Assembly (NCBI RefSeq): GCF_947568905.1
Contig: NC_079173.1
Span: 38,378,001 to 38,442,000 of the forward strand
Direction of reading: 5' to 3'
DNA from: Ostrea edulis
Taxonomy: Eukaryota
DNA length: 64,000 bases
In this document: in pieces, positions 1 through 7,770 of the stretch
Position numbering within the stretch: position 1 is the first letter of the stretch
How the letters are laid out: each line of letters begins with the position of its first letter
Program-made: the position numbers and the translations under genes
The notes under the pieces: model-generated
What the model was told of the DNA's origin: nothing
What the model saw: only the letters and a program-made list of their open reading frames with translations
Database searches by the model: none

Positions 1-476
1 TTTTGTCTCTGGGACTCGGTGATTAAATCCACGATATTGGAATCGGGGACCTTATGTCCTCTATAACTGATTTCTCCTTCTTTACTCCAAGTTAAGACTT
101 TGGATTTCTTGAGATGATCGAGTAATAAACCCGCTTTCTTTTGACCCGGTTTACTGACACTTTTGATAATCTGATCTTCTAATGCATTGGTATCTGCGGC
201 TGTGGCACCCCCAGGCGTTGGTATTCCCACAGGTGGTGTCGGTGGTAAAGGTTTAGACGGAGTCTGTTGTCGTGCTTGTTGTAAATATTGTCGATATCGA
301 TGAAGTTGATGGCCATACAAAGCTACTTTCCCCCTCTCGGTTAAATCATCTCGATGTTCGATGTCATCTAATTCACTGCGTTACCCCACGGTCGATTGAA
401 ATTCGGGAAGCTTGGGTAATTTTCCCTTCAACTCATTCAGCATGGCTTCGGGTACTAATACCATTTTACGACTCAT
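1..476 (-). pseudogene. Conserved Maverick-type hypothetical protein, 5' part (runs off window), with a nonsense codon and a frameshift
   Basis: Manual translation from ATG 476: MSRKMVLVPEAMLNELKGKLPKLPEFQSTVG*RSELDDIEHRDDLTER/(fs ~330)KVALYGHQLHRYRQY...LLDHLKKSKVLTWSKEGEISYRGHKVPDSNIVDLI. The EKxxLYxxxLxRY and LxWxxxGExxxxGxxxPxSNIxDL motifs match a recurrent Polinton ORF as I recall it. TAA at 383-381. Confidence 0.7.
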
Positions 477-844
477 CTTCTATTGGGATATTTGCAAATT
501 TTGTTAATTCCACAAACTAATGAAGCCAAGCATCCTTTCTGATTGAGTAACGCTCGTCGTTTTTTCACGGGTTGCGGCTGCACCATGCGTCTTAAGATGT
601 GCTTCTTCGGACCAAGTTGTCGTTTCTGAGCGGGAGTGAGAGGAATCACCCCTTTTAATATATTGTACACGATCTCACAAATCTTTAGAATGAAGTCATT
701 GGAACAATATTTGATGACCTCTCTCTTTAATTTGGAGGAATAATGAGGAACCGCTAAGGTTTGCAAGAGGGGTAAACGAGGTCTTAATCGGGATTCACAC
801 TTCTTCGTATCAGCAATAGTGTAATAATGAAGGTCTGTGCACAT
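473..844 (-). CDS. Small basic conserved Polinton protein (ICEIVYNILKGVIPLTPAQK...KKRRALLNQKG), probable virion/core or membrane-active protein
   Basis: ORF track 123 aa. The motif xICEIxxNILKGxIPLTxxQKxxL...KKRxxLxQKG is typical of Maverick small ORFs. The predicted initiator (830) lies downstream of ATG 844, so the real start may be the in-frame ACG at 808-806 (possibly a mutated ATG). Its stop overlaps the next ATG (ATGA). Confidence 0.7.
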   Translation of the reverse strand: MCTDLHYYTIADTKKCESRLRPRLPLLQTLAVPHYSSKLKREVIKYCSNDFILKICEIVYNILKGVIPLTPAQKRQLGPKKHILRRMVQPQPVKKRRALLNQKGCLASLVCGINKICKYPNRR

Positions 845-861
845 TCCCCCTGCTTTTTATA
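826..861 (-). promoter_or_regulatory. Core promoter of the small basic gene: TATAAAAA + TCATT
   Basis: TATA 861-854 lies 3 nt after the upstream stop. TCATT starts at 830. Confidence 0.55.
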
Positions 862-864
862 GTG

Positions 865-1773
865 TTACGCGCTCGGGTGCTGGGGATTGAAACGTCCGTG
901 ATGAACGGTCTCCTCGTGACGATCACGACTACTTTTCAAATTGTATTGCAGAGGACAATATCGACATTTGTATTTCTGCTTAGGGGTCGATGTGCTTAAG
1001 GGAGTAAAATGTGCCATACCCCCAAAGGCTTGACCAAAACTGGGTAAGGCTGTATCGGTGGTTCTGGAAGTTCCTATGGGTCCTCGCATGGCTCGTTCCA
1101 TTTTCTTTTCAGCTAATCCTTGTTTCAGTTCTGCTAAAGTCTTAGTTTTCTTGGGTGGGGTTATTTGAGGTATCATATATTTCGAAAAAGGGATTTTCAC
1201 GATGAGTTTAGGGGTCTTCTTCTTCTTAGGAAATTTAGCCATGCGTAAGAGATAAGGAGCCAGGACACTGGTTTTAGGATCGTGGGTCTTCCGGTGAATG
1301 ATGAGTTTCGGAACTTTCTTAGGAACTTTAGGAACTTTCTTTTTTCTTTTCTTAGCTAAGGCTAAGAGGGAAGGGGGTAACACATGTGTTTTCTTTTGCT
1401 TCACGACTCTCGCCACACTACGGGGACGTCTTTTACGTTTTTGCCCCGTTTCCCATTTGAACAAATGACGAATGATGGTCCCTCCTAAGAATCCGGCTCC
1501 ACCCCGTTTCAAAATGGATTTTTTACGATCTTCCTCATTCGCATTCTTATTGGCAATGACATTCAAGTCGTGACAATGTGCTTGAATGAAACGCCCCGTG
1601 AGTTTATTCACGGGTAAGACTCCTCGTAATAATTTTTTAGCGCCCATGGCAAACCAGTTGAGTAAGGCTTTACGTCCTAATTCAATGAGATGGGCTCGTT
1701 GAACGGGATCCCGTTCCCGCTGTAAACGTCGTAACGTTTTCACTAATTTACTCTTGGCTGTAGGTCTACCCAT
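865..1773 (-). CDS. Basic protein: N-terminal module related to the 473-844 protein, Lys/Pro-rich low-complexity tail, C-terminal C2H2 zinc finger
   Basis: Open frame. Likely start MGRPTAKSK (ATG 1773) just after the TATA (1826) and TCATT (1796). Contains LLRGVLPV...RKKSILKRGGAGFLGG, KKVPKVPKKVPKLII/PKKKKTPKLIV repeats, and YKCRYCPLQYNLKSSRDRHEETVH (C-x2-C-x12-H-x4-H). Confidence 0.75.
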   Translation of the reverse strand: MGRPTAKSKLVKTLRRLQRERDPVQRAHLIELGRKALLNWFAMGAKKLLRGVLPVNKLTGRFIQAHCHDLNVIANKNANEEDRKKSILKRGGAGFLGGTIIRHLFKWETGQKRKRRPRSVARVVKQKKTHVLPPSLLALAKKRKKKVPKVPKKVPKLIIHRKTHDPKTSVLAPYLLRMAKFPKKKKTPKLIVKIPFSKYMIPQITPPKKTKTLAELKQGLAEKKMERAMRGPIGTSRTTDTALPSFGQAFGGMAHFTPLSTSTPKQKYKCRYCPLQYNLKSSRDRHEETVHHGRFNPQHPSA

Positions 1774-1791: not shown

Positions 1792-1826
1792 AATGAAATG
1801 AATAGTCATTCATAATGATATTTATA
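1792..1826 (-). promoter_or_regulatory. Core promoter of the basic/C2H2 gene: TATAAATA + TCATT
   Basis: TATAAATA 1826-1819 contains the ATPase TAA stop. TCATT starts at 1796. Confidence 0.6.
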
Positions 1827-2460
1827 CTCTCGGTGGCATGTGCACCGCTAAGGTAGAAAAGAGTTGACTTCTTAATCTTAAATCCTCGGATGTCTGAGGA
1901 CTTAAATCGACCAGTAAATATCCGTGAGGAATACTGGTGGCTTCATCATACGCGGGTAATAAATGAGGCATTTGTAATTGGCGACTTAATACCCCAATCT
2001 GAGATTTATCTCTAGGATTTTTAAACAACACGAGATAGTGGGCATTCAGACTGATAGTACGATGTTGCACGGCGCGATCAAATAGATTTTGCGTGATATA
2101 TATAACACTGGTATTACGATGATGCGCTTTGCGCGTAAACCAATCTACAATAGATTCTATGGCTTTACCGCCCATCATATCATCAAAAATGAGTAAATGT
2201 CGAGTAGTGAGATCGGCGACTAATTTCTCATCGTCTTGAGGAATGTTGTGAACGAATGTTACAGCTTTTTGTAATGATTCATAAGCCGGTTGCCATTCTC
2301 GATAACACCATACTATTTTTTCTGGGGGTGGTGATATCCACTGCGTATTTTGTACCAGTTGCTTCACAAATTCCGTTTTACCCGATTTAGAGGGACCCGC
2401 CACCACCATAGTAAATTCATGTTTCAATTGAAACGGGGCCAGTGTCTCGTAGGCATACAT
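1822..2460 (-). CDS. A32/FtsK-HerA-like DNA packaging ATPase
   Basis: Walker A GPSKSGKT, Walker B LLIFDDMM, and the family motifs TRKAHHRNTSVIYITQNLF and NAHYLVLFKNPRD. Intact; ATG at 2460 (the track start at 2475 is GTG). Confidence 0.93.
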   Translation of the reverse strand: MYAYETLAPFQLKHEFTMVVAGPSKSGKTEFVKQLVQNTQWISPPPEKIVWCYREWQPAYESLQKAVTFVHNIPQDDEKLVADLTTRHLLIFDDMMGGKAIESIVDWFTRKAHHRNTSVIYITQNLFDRAVQHRTISLNAHYLVLFKNPRDKSQIGVLSRQLQMPHLLPAYDEATSIPHGYLLVDLSPQTSEDLRLRSQLFSTLAVHMPPRV

Positions 2461-2467
2461 CTTGATA

Positions 2468-2503
2468 AATGACACAAGTTCATGGGATCATACATATTTA
2501 TTA
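2468..2503 (-). promoter_or_regulatory. ATPase core promoter / iap poly(A) signal: TAATAAATA + TCATT
   Basis: TAATAAATA 2503-2495 contains the iap stop codon and AATAAA. TCATT starts at 2472. Confidence 0.5.
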
Positions 2504-3028
2504 ACAAGTAAAAATACGAACCGTTTCTACAAAAGAATCTCTACAAATAGGACATGTTCTAAGTCCTGAAGCACACATAGCACAAGTACATAAATGACCA
2601 CAAGGTAAAAAAGCAATTCTCAAGTCTCGTTCTAAACAAATGTGACATTTCTGGGTACACATTGGATTCCCTGCCCCGTCTAAGGGCAAATCTCCCCAAT
2701 CGCGATCACTGTCTTTAGCGCGGGCATAGGCATTGAAGGCTTGTCGTACCCATTTGACACTTTTATTGCACAACACGTAAGCACAATGAGGGCTCCAATA
2801 GGCATGTTCTATCCAAGGATCGTCCCCGGGTTCCCAATGTTTGAGAGACAATGTGCAATGAAAACAACGCACATGATCATCCATTCCTTTGAAAAAGAAT
2901 CCGGCTTCTGCAATGTTAGGTAATAAGTTCAACAGAATATCGGGGGCTGTATGAAATGACTCTAGACGAGCCGATAATTCACCATAGGAAGGCACTGAAG
3001 GATTCTGTAGTGATCCGTATTTACTCAT
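2501..3028 (-). CDS. iap: Inhibitor of apoptosis protein (single BIR + C-terminal C3HC4 RING), intronless, 175 aa
   Basis: BIR: RLESF...AEAGFFFKGMDDHVRCFHC-x16-H-x6-C with WEPGDDPWIEH. RING: CHIC-x11-CGH-x3-CAMC-x6-CPIC ending VRIFTC. ATG at 3028 (the track start at 3052 is TTG). It has its own TATA and Inr, and AATAAA overlaps the stop. Confidence 0.95.
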   Translation of the reverse strand: MSKYGSLQNPSVPSYGELSARLESFHTAPDILLNLLPNIAEAGFFFKGMDDHVRCFHCTLSLKHWEPGDDPWIEHAYWSPHCAYVLCNKSVKWVRQAFNAYARAKDSDRDWGDLPLDGAGNPMCTQKCHICLERDLRIAFLPCGHLCTCAMCASGLRTCPICRDSFVETVRIFTC

Positions 3029-3035
3029 TTTGCAG

Positions 3036-3072
3036 ACTGATGTTTTTCTCAAGACGCGTTTCCTTTTTTATA
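3036..3072 (-). promoter_or_regulatory. iap core promoter: TATAAAAAA + TCAGT initiator
   Basis: On the minus strand: TATA 3072-3064 begins 1 nt after the polB TAG stop, and TCAGT starts at 3040. Confidence 0.65.
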
Positions 3073-3073
3073 C

Positions 3074-6000
3074 CTAATATCCATAAGGAAGCGTGTTGTA
3101 ATGGTGAACCCGCTGTCGCTTGTCGTACACTACGCGGTATTTCTTTACTAAGGGAATGGTGCGAACATCGTGCTGGTGCGTTCTCTGAATGTAGTGAGGA
3201 TAACGCACATTGACTTCTTTTTCTTCTCCTTTTAACATTTTTTCTAAGGTAGCGAGTGAGACGATCTTAGAAGCGCGATAATTGAGCGTCAGTCCTTTAA
3301 CTTTGCACATTGATTTTTCCCCCTGGGTCTCGTATGCATAATTTTTAGGGCCTCCCGACATGTACTTGATGATACGATCTCCACTCAATTCATCGGTCCA
3401 GCCGCCTAAACTGTTGACAATGGTAGGGTTAAATTGGGTCTCATCATGTTGATAGATAATACTATCCGTATCAAAATAGAGGACGCGTTCCCCCAAAGGT
3501 TCTAACATCTCGTAGAGATGTAAACGAGCATGCGCTGTGGTAAAACAAGCCAGCACTACGTTTCCAAAAGGACAGTCTTCTAGGAATTCTTCTTTCTCCT
3601 GATAATTGATCAGCATCATGTCGGTTTCGGGGTGATCTCGATTTTCCAGCAGCTCGACTCCTTTGATTTCTAGAGTGGCATCTTGTAATTTTTTCTGTAA
3701 TTCTTCTTCGGTTAAATACTGTGTTTGTGGTAGTTGTAATCGTTGTGCAAATTTTCCCCAGAGACAATTTAAAAAGAGTTTGGCAATGGTTCTACGGACG
3801 GGGTTTTTCTCGATGTCTATTAGATTCATGAAGATGCCTTCCCGGCGCCGGATCTCATCGATGTAGTCTTGTTTCTGTTAGCTCGTTTGACAATGATCGG
3901 GGAATCCGGAAGCTTCTTGTTTAATTTTAAAAAAAAGTATCGATGTAAGATCGAAACAAATCCTGGCTAGTCTTTTCAAAATGCCAGACTTCATAGATGC
4001 GGTCGAGCCGATAGCCGAGATCTAGAGCTTTGTGTACTTCTACGGTCACCCAGGTGCCAGTCAGACTGCGTTCTGAATCGCTGTGACTGCATCGATCGTC
4101 GGGTCCTAAGTTGCGATGTTCGGCGCAGGTTTGGCATAAGGGGAAAAGTAATTTTCCTCCCGTCTTATAGGGTAAGACGGGGTGATACAGACCTCGTGGT
4201 GGTAAGACACGACAATGAATGAGACCAAAGTACTCTCTCACATTCTTGAAATCGCTGGTGATGACTTGAGGATGATCGATGGGAAACGTTCTGTATTTCA
4301 ACACGTAAGGATAGAGAACACACATCGACGTATCGCATATCTCCCTCCTCGCAATACAGACGCGTGGCATTGGTACGACCTCCGTATAAGGCATCGCGGG
4401 GATTTAAGGGGTCCTGAATATCGAGGTCTCGTAGTAATGTTTGTAACTCTGGATTGTTTTTCACTTGTCGATCAAACTCGTGTTCCCAGATGCTCACGAC
4501 TGTATATCCTTGTTGCTCTAAGGCGGCGGCGCGTTTCAAGGTTTGCTCATACAGGGTTTGATACGTCTGCTGGACTCGATGGGGGTGGGTTTCCGTCAAC
4601 AGATTCGGATAACAGGTGGGGCACCCGTGCCAGTAGCAGCCGTAAAATTCGTACACGGTGCGGGATTCCTCCTCGTAGCCGTCCACCGTATAAGGGCCTA
4701 TGGTAATTTCGCCCCCGTTCTTAGCATGACGTATGTTGCGGTCCAGGGAGGTGAGCCAGCGACAGGCCTTGGCCGAGTAGCGGCGCGACGGTTGATATCC
4801 CATATTGGGTATGATGGCTATGGTGTCCTGTGCCATGAATCCTCGGCGATACGATAAATCAGCCGTGCTAGCAAAAGTGATGGATTCCTGAAACGGGTCG
4901 ACGCGGACGAGTCCGTAGAGCGTCGCCTTAAATTGCGCACAACAACGACGTAAAATATCCACATCCGAGATACAGTAAGCCAGGAATTCCTTCTGGAAAT
5001 CGAACACTTTCCCGGCCTGTTTAGTGTACCAGATATAGAAGGCTGCACGATTAGCGATCGACATGTCGTCAGGATTGTAGTAGTGAGCATCGGGATAAGC
5101 CCCCACGTAATTCTGGTTTTGTTCCGTGTTAAAAAAGTGGGGGAAATAACTTTTTTCAGTTCTGTTAATCCAAACGCAGAGGGCATCTTGGCGAGGGCAA
5201 AGGGGAGGAAATTGTATGAATCGATGAATCTCAAGCCGAACACACCCATACACAAGATTTTACTGCCGTTGAGGATGACTGCGGGTTTGATACAGGCCGT
5301 ATGCACTAGATAGTTCAAGATGAATTGCCCATCGTATCCCTTGAAATTGTGCGCAATGGCGGTCGTTTCATCATGCTTAAAAGTCACTTTACCCTTCTCG
5401 TCCGTCTGGGATTGTAACAACCATTCCATAAACTGCTTTAAGGTGTCGGGGCCTTGAAATACGAAACGGCGTTGCGAGCCAAACGCATGACAGTGATCAC
5501 ACCGCATGTCGATGTCTAAACTATCGCAATGTTGACACACGCGTTCGGCCACACAGAGGTTAGGGGTGTGAACTCCGTTTTCCTGGGTACATTCAAAATC
5601 GTAATAAATGTACATTTTCAAATCCTTGTTGCGTTTGGGCTTGGGTTTCTGTTGAACGAAGCAGAGATGTGGGGTGGTGACGAGTTTCTTGCAGATGTGA
5701 CATTGTGTTTTTCCACCGCACGCGTGCTGTTTTAATAATTTCTTTGTCATCCATTTCTGACACTGGTCACAACGTCCCATTAAACTACACACAGTTGTCG
5801 CGGTATTGCTACTGTAAGGTTTCAAGTGGGTCTGGTAACACGCAGCATTTCTAAAAAAATCCCTTACAATGAGCACATTCCGTGGGGGTGCCGTCTGGGG
5901 AACAGGGGGTGTCGGCTAAACAAAACGAACAGCGGTGAGGGCAGACGGTACGGTGGTCTTCGATGTGGCTATATCCAACATCACAGTAATCACAATAATA

Positions 6001-7044
6001 TGTATTTTCCGTCACTCCCGGCATCGATGTTATGGTATCGTAATGCTCGTTATCCAACAGGATGTTCAAACATTTTCCGCTCCCCTGACCTCTGTAGATG
6101 GGGTCTAATCGTAATCGCTGCGTGTTTGTCTTAAAATGGAATATTTTCAAGCGATACTCGGGAGCCAAGACCTGATGTAATTTCTCCCATTCCTGAGCCC
6201 CACACGGTTGATCGTTTGCACACCCGGCGAGTTCCATGAGCGCTAAGACCTGTCGTTTCTGGTCGAGAGCTTGCGTATCCCCTTTTCTCATCTTTAACCA
6301 TTTTTTATCCCATTCGGGGTCCGGAACCTTAGGTTTTTGACTGTGTAACTGTGCCACGGCAATAGCTCGGGGTAGACATAATGAATCGTCGGGGTTGTTA
6401 ATACGAACGATAGCTCTCTTGGAGATCTTAAATTTCTTTTTATCGACTTGTAGATGCTTTTTCTTCATGCCGCCGCCACTCCCTTGAGGATATTTGACAT
6501 GAAAAAAATCTAACTGTGTGGCTCCGTCTGTCATCAGGAACTCTTTTTTAGATTGCTGTACGGCTTCTATTTTGTTTAAAATTTTATCCTCGTTGAGGTT
6601 TTTAGACTGGGTAAATTCGACCCAAATCTCGGAATCCAAAGACGGGTGTCGAATGTTGAGCCGTACATAATCATTGGGGTTGCACTGCATTTCCCGTTTC
6701 ACATTTTTGAGCATATCTTTGAATAATCGCCGAATAAAGGAAGAATCTGGAAGCTCTTTGAAAGTAACGTTGTACACATTTTGTTTCACTTTAAATTTCC
6801 TGGAATGGCGGCCTCTGTCGAGTTTGATTCGATAATATTCCGACACTAACTGGCGTTTTTCTCTGGCTATCCCCCCTCCCCGCTGTAAAAATCTCACTCG
6901 TTGCCAGTTTTCTCTGCGGAGTTCTAATTCACGCTCTCGCTGTATGTGTAGTTGTTCCTCTAAAAATCTCAATCGCTGTTCAATATAATTGGTTGGGAGC
7001 CCATTTCTGCTATTCCGTAAGTCGTTGGGTATTCGCTCAGACAT
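3074..7044 (-). pseudogene. polB: Protein-primed family B DNA polymerase (pPolB), ~1320 codons, disrupted by 4 frameshifts and 1 nonsense codon
   Basis: Five ORF-track pieces join into one protein: ExoI YYDFECT, ExoII AHNFKGYDGQF, FIDSYNFLP, ExoIII YCISDVDIL, YGGRTNA, motif A YVDVCSLYPY, motif B KLFLNCLWGKFAQR, motif C YFDTDSII, GPKNYAY. Lesions: A7 run 5853-5859, ~5150, ~4323, A8 run 3929-3936, TAA at 3880-3878. Confidence 0.96.
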
Positions 7045-7089: not shown

Positions 7090-7514
7090 TATTGTGACGT
7101 CATAGAAAAACAGGTTTTTCTACAACGTCAGCTATAATGTTCCAGTCCTAGCTCGGTCACAGCGTCATATAGAATGTTCCACAACGTCAATAACACTCTA
7201 AATTAATTAAATTGTTTATTTAATAAATGTGTAAACTTAAAATCATGCGTTTATTATTCATAACACTGTGGATTTTAAAGGATTTTAAAGGATTCACACA
7301 CGGCTCAGGCCTCGTCGTCATACCAACTTTGTTATCGATTTTTCCTACACCTGCACAGCACGCGCTAGGCACGCGCTAGGCACGCCCCGCCTTAGCAACG
7401 CGCTACCTCGACACACGCTAGGCCTCGGCCGCTCTCCAGTGCGTTCTAAAACTTGACTTTTTGACCTCAAAAGTGCACTCAGTTGAACCACCCATCGAGC
7501 CGCCTTATACTACT
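7090..7514. repeat. Candidate right terminal inverted repeat of the Polinton, with internal short direct repeats
   Basis: Non-coding, with a GC-rich distal part: GGATTTTAAA x2 (~7270-7294) and CACGCGCTAGG x2-3 (~7359-7385, a variant at ~7413). It ends in ACTACT (7509-7514), followed by candidate 6-bp TSD AAGGGA. The left copy is outside the window, so the inner boundary is unknown. Confidence 0.55.
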
Positions 7515-7645: not shown

Positions 7646-7770
7646 TTCAGCAGTCTCTTTTGAATTCGGCATTTCGCAAATTATATATACGTTATAACGA
7701 TCTAGTTTGCCAATACAACCTATCATTGGGTCAAATGTTTTCCAATGTGTTCCATACCAAATATGCCCCA
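7646..7770 (+). mobile_element. Penelope-like element RT C-terminal fragment
   Basis: Translates to QQSLLNSAFRKLYIRYNDLVCQYNLSLGQMFSNVFHT, the RLKSAFRKFYGRYNDL-type C-terminus also seen at several other places in this window. Confidence 0.65.

Follow-up and report, generated by a model that had tools for sequence, protein, structure and literature searches.

The window analysed here is a stretch of 64,000 nucleotides of the Ostrea edulis genome (NC_079173.1, positions 38,378,001 to 38,442,000). At its start lies the right-hand part of a Polinton, in which a gene for an inhibitor of apoptosis (IAP) sits between the genes for protein-primed DNA polymerase B (pPolB) and a packaging ATPase. The features are as follows, with the basis of each call in brackets.

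3..856, minus strand: two more conserved Polinton ORFs (ORF list, sister copies)
865..1773, minus strand: basic Polinton ORF, 302 aa (ORF list, sister copies)
1822..2460, minus strand: A32/FtsK-type packaging ATPase, 212 aa, open (Pfam Pox_A32)
2497..2502, minus strand: AATAAA overlapping the IAP stop codon (motif)
2501..3028, minus strand: IAP gene, allele A, 175 aa, intronless, with one type II BIR and a C-terminal RING (Pfam, translation)
2504..2653, minus strand: RING domain, residues 126-165, followed by a C-terminal tail whose last letters are VRIFTC (Pfam, alignment)
2774..2968, minus strand: BIR domain, residues ~21-85 (Pfam, fold, alignment)
3036..3072, minus strand: putative TATAAAA (3066-3072) and initiator-like TCAGT (3036-3040) (motif match alone)
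3074..7044, minus strand: pPolB, frameshifted here (Pfam DNA_pol_B_2)
7205..7514: terminal inverted repeat with ...TACTACT at its end, matched by the opposite end of the element in locus L032
7515..7520: 6-bp target-site duplication AAGGGA, present at the far end too

The frame at 2501-3028 (minus strand) is uninterrupted and translates into a protein of 175 aa. Pfam matches to a BIR (E=3.7e-19, 69.4 bits versus a cut-off of 22.9) and a C3HC4 RING (zf-C3HC4_3, E=3.9e-11, above cut-off) were obtained with this protein. All zinc ligands of the BIR are there (C55, C58, H75 and C82), its groove residues are L62, W65, D69, E74 and W78, and the protein keeps the stretch WEPGDDPWIEH and a complete set of RING ligands. 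An earlier note on this DNA, written from the letters alone, had described an intact, intronless BIR-RING IAP between PolB and the ATPase, and the translation, the Pfam matches, the zinc and RING ligands and the WEPGDDPWIEH stretch all confirm that description. The usual BIR motif is 'WP', and the Trp of this motif is replaced by Ala here. An aromatic residue in the tail of such RINGs has a role in dimerisation; the tail of the Polinton IAP aligns in register with that of cIAP1 (allele C aligned with 3t6p). A structure model (pLDDT 74.6) matches cIAP1-BIR3, XIAP-BIR3, DIAP1-BIR2 and ML-IAP at an rmsd of ~2-3 A. The closest named protein, 98% identical, is from Ostrea edulis and is labelled BIRC7-like in RefSeq.

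These residues were followed through 88 intact copies of the gene in the genome (see below). The zinc ligands C55, C58, H75 and C82 are kept in 87, 88, 88 and 88 of them, and W65, D69, R163 and F173 in 88, 87, 88 and 87. The type II BIR signature, which goes with an IBM groove and is given as E/Q76, H77, W/H80 and C84 in the text of PMC8917759, is found as E or Q74, H75, W78 and C82 in all 88. The predicted TATA/Inr of the IAP sits in the 45-bp spacer past the pPolB stop, a spacer that contains no AATAAA. Over the intact copies a TATA-like box was found in 82/88, an Inr in 84/88 and the AATAAA in 88/88. Motifs of similar style also precede pPolB and the ORF at 865-1773, in keeping with the earlier description of a TATA/Inr in the manner of the neighbouring genes. 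No poly(A) tail was found 3' of the IAP stop.

Polintons, or Mavericks, are recognised by terminal inverted repeats, AG...CT ends, a 6-bp target duplication and a size of 15-25 kb. The element in the window is 20.9 kb long, with its right end at window position 7514 and its left end in locus L032. Both ends read AGTAGTA inward and are each flanked by AAGGGA, and the inverted repeats of the two ends match at 84-91%. In its repeats, terminal motif, target duplication and size the element thus has the ends of a Polinton/Maverick. About 13.4 kb of it run past the window start, where an integrase, capsid-like genes, a protease, accessory genes and the left end are found. The gene order in the window element and its sister copies is pPolB, IAP, ATPase, three ORFs, rve-chromo integrase, capsid-like ORFs, C5 protease and accessory genes. 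The integrase has rve and Chromo domains in a sister copy and is represented by homologous broken ORFs in the window element, while the protease reaches the Pfam cut-off for Peptidase_C5 in a sister copy. Two ORFs of 467 aa and 331 aa are called capsid-like on position and size; they lie where the double jelly-roll major capsid and penton genes of a Polinton would be expected, gave no Pfam, PHROG or PDB sequence match, and have homologs that adjoin the protease in two other elements. The 302-aa ORF at 865-1773 matched no Pfam family at E<=0.1. In the window the pPolB is split into five tblastn pieces, which fits the earlier estimate of its lesions. The IAP lies 45 bp after the pPolB stop and 40 bp before the ATPase. 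Just past the right end of the element (7669-7760) is a short repeat of very high copy number, and a slightly G-rich stretch with short ORFs at 15910-16390 is possibly a piece of some other mobile element.

The genome was searched with the IAP, and 150 of 332 candidates were scored. Among these were at least 111 full-length matches on ten contigs, 107 of the 111 being free of stops. Merging gave at least 141 IAP loci, and at 125 of the 141 an ATPase lies on the same strand within 6 kb downstream, with an IAP-ATPase gap of 40-49 bp at 106 of the 125. Conversely, 125 of 140 ATPase loci carry the IAP. Examination of 110 of the 141 loci separated five host-type genes, which are exon-split and without Polinton genes nearby, from 105 belonging to the Polinton IAP family. 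Upstream of the IAP, pPolB is present at 103 of these 105 (at a distance of 39-56 bp at 100), the IAP frame is intact at 88, and all eight family loci examined that lack an ATPase have pPolB remnants. A separate scoring of 150 of 374 BIR candidates gave at least 116 members of the family.

Fifteen ATPase loci lack the IAP, seven of which were examined. By eye, six of the seven retain the 3' end of the gene (only a few codons at L144) and are therefore deletions; the seventh belongs to a distant family and has no BIR match within 10 kb. The AGTAGTA terminus was found at 80 of 95 loci with 79 distinct flanks, which are therefore separate insertions. Related non-autonomous derivatives at L145-L148 jointly miss most of the IAP and the genes downstream of it, and since these multiplied without it the IAP is not needed in cis. 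Contigs from five read sets (X2-X6) cover 30/30 bins of the stretches compared, with the reservation that their depth is not copy number and that one set is possibly from the source sample. Read set X1 (RNA by guess, another organism label, 0.12 of words) has deep contigs over pPolB and the 3' half of the IAP and shallow ones over the ATPase; as contig depth cannot rank genes and the fit to the other backbone is poor, it was dropped as expression evidence. The IAP is a standard accessory gene, native to a Polinton family that has recently amplified and has over 100 dispersed copies. The earlier note had considered it a native cassette gene, not a random capture, and had named copies without the IAP, combined with marks of a one-off retrocopy in this one, as an observation that would speak against this; the gene proved to occupy the same slot elsewhere, with pPolB and ATPase on either side, and six of the seven IAP-less loci are deletions.

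By allele, the 88 intact copies were sorted into A (33), A2 (7), B (22), C (22) and D (4). Comparisons of one allele with another gave a dN/dS of 0.27-0.45 at a dS of 0.48-1.08 (five pairs, bootstrap upper bounds 0.42-0.69), and the IAP was therefore under purifying selection while the element spread; a comparison of dN/dS across copies had been proposed in the earlier note. Within alleles the ratio is 0.73 for A and 0.94 for B, with synonymous distances of only 0.012 and 0.003, and the close pair formed by the window copy and L055 gives 1.48 (interval 0.5-4.1). Ratios near 1 at such tiny distances suggest that selection acted on replicating lineages and that inserted copies are young and mostly drift. 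Core genes compared between backbones have a dN/dS of 0.07-0.15, so that the ratio for the IAP is 3-5 times as high. In deep comparisons the dN/dS of each IAP domain was no higher than 1. Among 59 copies of the young backbone the frames of pPolB, ATPase and integrase are open in 46, 56 and 53; as these genes are also mostly open, intactness of the IAP reflects age.

The alleles are only 59-71% identical, versus ~92% for the ATPase, and the groove residues 61-64, 70, 74 and 79 vary among them. One young backbone, with pPolB and ATPase ~98-100% identical, hosts three IAP alleles, and 14 of the 33 intact allele-A copies are on backbone II. In two such copies that were mapped the flanks are 95-100% backbone II-like and the IAP is 97-100% backbone I-like, with breakpoints at the promoter and at the stop. 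Allele B is a mosaic: it is allele C in which ~120 nt, covering linker and the early part of the RING, derive from A. IAP alleles have thus been exchanged, whole or in part, between element backbones.

Further accessory genes were noted in the element and its sister copies. A 115-aa ORF with similarity to GADD34/ICP34.5/DP71L (PP1c_bdg) is located at L296:1079-1426 (+), the window element's far end, and at L036:7452-7799 (-). It scores 32.0 bits with PF10488 in the window element (cut-off 26.1) and 28.2 in a sister copy, and the encoded protein is predicted to have a PP1c-binding region. The literature consulted contained no earlier report of a GADD34/ICP34.5-like gene in Polintons. A tandem array of 3-4 paralogous helical ORFs of 100-130 aa is located at L296:207-1244 (+), L036:7634-9026 (-) and L034:8548-9585 (-). 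In a search with a model of one of them (pLDDT 85.9) Bcl-2-fold chains made up 14 of 50 rows and 6 of the top 8, with a best Z of 6.4 that lies below the tool's threshold for helical proteins (rmsd 3.4, 92 aligned). Foldseek gave E>=1.2 with the same model, no sequence match was found for these ORFs, and Atlas gave weak, unrelated matches; on the model the paralogs are weakly Bcl-2-like. A macrodomain-like ORF (weak PDB matches, PHROG 335) at L031:1683-2186 (-) and L036:5455-5952 (+) has opposite orientation in two backbones and does not appear among the ORFs listed for two other copies. A proline-rich ORF at L036:6104-6895 (-) and L296:2206-2775 (+) has at its end a cysteine pattern that resembles a degenerate RING (Pfam E=0.1). 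Near the left end are two ORFs with weak Viral_Rep (HUH-like) matches and an ORF of 310 aa that contains two zinc knuckles of CCHC type (Viral_Rep-like/zinc-knuckle ORFs at L036:9167-9673, L034:5064-5396 and L032:7044-7976). According to the text of PMC5618007, African swine fever virus, abbreviated ASFV, carries, in A224L, DP71L and A179L, the same three kinds of gene as the Polinton IAP, the GADD34-like ORF and the putatively Bcl-2-like ORFs.

BIR genes were also found in other Polintons. A Polinton-type ATPase lies near a BIR-RING match at 4 of 105 loci in metagenome and viral contigs, and BIR-RING genes are present in the unrelated Polinton-like contigs L173, L210 and L165, with L210 adding protease, capsid-like and integrase genes. 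Right before the BIR-RING gene in L173 (672-1987) and L210 (3565-4739) are a TBP-domain gene (L173) and an adjacent ORF that is TFIIB/cyclin-like by eye. In the short contig L165 (715-2552) packaging ATPase, dUTPase and BIR-RING gene are side by side. Pattern scans of metagenome and viral contigs with the IAP revealed no close relative (best segments 26-55%), and scans of viral contigs with the BIR of a second family, described next, and with the ATPase found nothing. This second, degraded Polinton family is present at L258, one of 20 further BIR loci examined in the oyster genome.

L258:359-6165: second Polinton family, in the order PC4, BIR-only gene, integrase, capsid-like gene, protease

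The PC4-BIR-integrase order is repeated at L283 and BIR-integrase at L277, while L256/L257 and L278-L282 have no such Polinton neighbours in the DNA examined. Relatives of the second family's BIR with 44-63% identity occur in Saccostrea echinata, S. cucullata, Pinctada imbricata, Crassostrea angulata and C. gigas. Their annotations are those of host IAPs or of hypothetical genes, and several are same-length copies on different scaffolds.

In a BIR tree of 74 rows and 80 columns, made by a quick method and with 41 of 71 forks open, the Polinton IAP family groups with seven unnamed short proteins (SH-aLRT 92). The tree names no host or viral donor gene, and the viral-contig relatives, at most 39% identical, do not group with the Polinton IAP. 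Like baculovirus IAPs (Op-IAP3/Cp-IAP type) and ASFV A224L, with which viruses counter the death of the host cell, the Polinton IAP is a BIR protein; in the text of PMC5618007 Op-IAP has two BIRs and a RING and A224L one BIR without a RING, whereas the Polinton IAP has one BIR and a RING. Sequence and fold matches place it beside ML-IAP/Livin (BIRC7) and the BIR3-RING part of cIAP1, which share the single type II BIR with a C-terminal RING. Unlike these it has only 175 aa with a very short linker, is intronless and lies inside a mobile element.

We favour the reading, with a probability of about 0.7, that the IAP is a native, selected Polinton gene whose product would prevent death of the host cell while the element is being copied, through a predicted two-step action of BIR and RING. 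Proteins that carry an IAP-binding motif at their N-terminus, either caspases or their Smac-type activators, would be held in the groove of the type II BIR, and the RING would then ubiquitinate the proteins so bound. Expression would be early, from the gene's own TATA/Inr, and IAP and pPolB transcripts may share a 3' end. Type II BIRs are described in the text of PMC13159474 as binding caspases and their antagonists, and RINGs as ubiquitinating them. An anti-apoptotic BIR-RING ligase is favoured by the type II signature, the RING and tail residues, the model match and these known roles together; binding, E3 activity and an anti-death outcome are thus predicted from sequence and model, and suppression of apoptosis by the Polinton IAP, as proposed in the earlier note, is probable on the sequence. 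The GADD34-like ORF, the weakly Bcl-2-like paralogs and the BIR-RING genes of unrelated Polinton-like contigs also count in favour of this reading. As counterpoints, cnidarian and sponge RING-IAPs are reported as caspase activators in PMC13159474, and deletion of the ASFV IAP left replication unaffected according to the text of PMC5618007. The Ala in place of the 'WP' tryptophan, the groove residues that vary, the dN/dS above that of core genes and the derivatives that multiplied without the IAP weigh against it too.

The groove and linker diverge strongly among alleles, and the target may therefore not be a conserved caspase. A ubiquitin ligase that acts for the element against antiviral or NF-kB signalling proteins, or against host IAPs, instead of directly braking caspases would explain allele swapping as tracking of a changing host target. 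With this agree the low identity of the alleles (59-71% versus ~92% for the ATPase), their different groove residues at 61-64, 70, 74 and 79, the 14 of 33 allele-A copies on backbone II and the A-derived linker in B; ASFV A224L also activates NF-kB, as stated in PMC5618007. The type II signature is, however, present in 88/88 intact copies, no domain exceeds a dN/dS of 1 in deep comparisons, and other likely anti-death genes are in the same element, for which we hold this explanation to be unlikely, at perhaps one chance in five. Co-option by the oyster, with inserted copies kept by host-level selection as extra stress or immune IAPs, is considerably less probable. Stop-free frames in 107 of the 111 full-length matches and three RefSeq proteins of the family bearing host IAP names would suit it, but the copies are very young (synonymous distance 0.003 for B, 0.012 for A) with dN/dS near 1, and pPolB, ATPase and integrase are likewise open in 46, 56 and 53 of 59 copies on the young backbone. 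That the gene entered the window Polinton as a single retrocopy event or a neutral passenger is already refuted by the identical slot in more than 100 copies on several backbones, between-allele dN/dS intervals that exclude 1, IAP-less copies that are deletions with remnants and a stop with no poly(A) tail after it, even though the gene has no introns and chance alone would leave a frame of 0.5 kb intact in a young copy.

A probable anti-death gene native to the Polinton bears on how bivalve IAPs have been interpreted. Expansion of this family is widely read as host stress adaptation (texts of PMC7831173 and PMC8917759). In the text of Song 2021 (PMC7831173) 51 of 159 clam IAPs lack introns, are dispersed and for the most part silent, lie close to DNA transposons and are termed retroposed, and the BIR+PC4 type is termed an innovation. 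The first 28 of the 49 rows for clade 1 in that article include 11 single-exon genes of 408 nt on six chromosomes with FPKM <1. Retroposition is likewise invoked for intronless bivalve IAPs in the text of Witkop 2022 (PMC8917759), and intronless dispersed copies are scored as retrotransposed in PMC13159474. The words 'Polinton' and 'Maverick' are not in the main texts of PMC7831173, PMC8917759 or PMC13159474. Mavericks make up 1.69-1.93% of the hard-clam genome (Farhat 2022, PMC8905726) and are the largest DNA-transposon entry among the table rows seen there. The preprint 10.1101/2025.04.19.649669 describes bivalves as rich in Polinton regions with ORFs often annotated as eukaryotic, and the sections consulted do not mention IAPs; those of Boutet 2022 (PMC9679248) draw no link between Polintons and IAPs.

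The presence of IAPs in bivalve Polintons has already been noted in passing. One sentence of Starrett 2021 (PMC8502044) reports IAP and Bcl2 homologs in adintovirus (animal Polinton/Maverick) elements, which share the set of pPolB, ATPase, rve integrase and adenain protease with the element studied here. In the text layer of its Supplementary Fig. S2 an 'IAP' label stands before a Mytilus row and another before a Pinctada row. The portions consulted mention neither copy number nor selection, and neither allele exchange nor a connection with the number of host IAPs; the main text lacks 'oyster' and 'Crassostrea', and 'GADD34' is missing from the supplement text. The earlier note suggested that Polintons may be an under-recognised source of IAP copies in molluscs and overlooked this report, which apparently includes mussel and pearl-oyster elements. 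Our search, which covered mainly open-access papers, found no publication linking Polintons to bivalve IAP counts. Copy number, selection, allele swapping, the second PC4-BIR Polinton family and the bearing on IAP expansion appear to be new. The interpretation in the earlier note is otherwise supported, including its suggestion that Polintons supply 'host' IAP copies, which holds in the oyster genome with at least 125 loci and three host-named RefSeq proteins. As no more than these three RefSeq proteins of the family turned up, in two clusters, the annotated IAP count of this species may be little inflated.

According to the texts of PMC7831173 and PMC8917759 the intronless IAPs of Mercenaria and Crassostrea are, like the oyster Polinton genes, dispersed and closely related, and they are mostly silent and enriched in DNA transposons nearby; they are BIR-only, as in the L258 family, whereas the window gene is BIR-RING. 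Since relatives of the second family are annotated as host IAPs, Polintons offer another explanation than 'retroposition' for the bivalve IAPs without introns, and as PC4 lies directly upstream of the BIR-only gene, the BIR+PC4 type of clams and mussels would result if a gene model fused the two. We give roughly even odds to the wider proposal that dispersed, intronless, mostly silent bivalve IAPs (~1/3 of hard-clam IAPs, plus the BIR+PC4 type of clams and mussels) are Polinton-virus cargo and not host retrogenes, carried in an ASFV-like kit of IAP, Bcl-2-like array, GADD34 mimic and macrodomain, with the IAP swapped between lineages as a host-facing module. In the oyster genome a single Polinton family adds at least 125 IAP loci. 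A selected and swapped gene predicted to oppose cell death, with a putative translation-rescue gene beside it, argues that Polintons are confronted with antiviral defences of the cell in the way that true viruses are.
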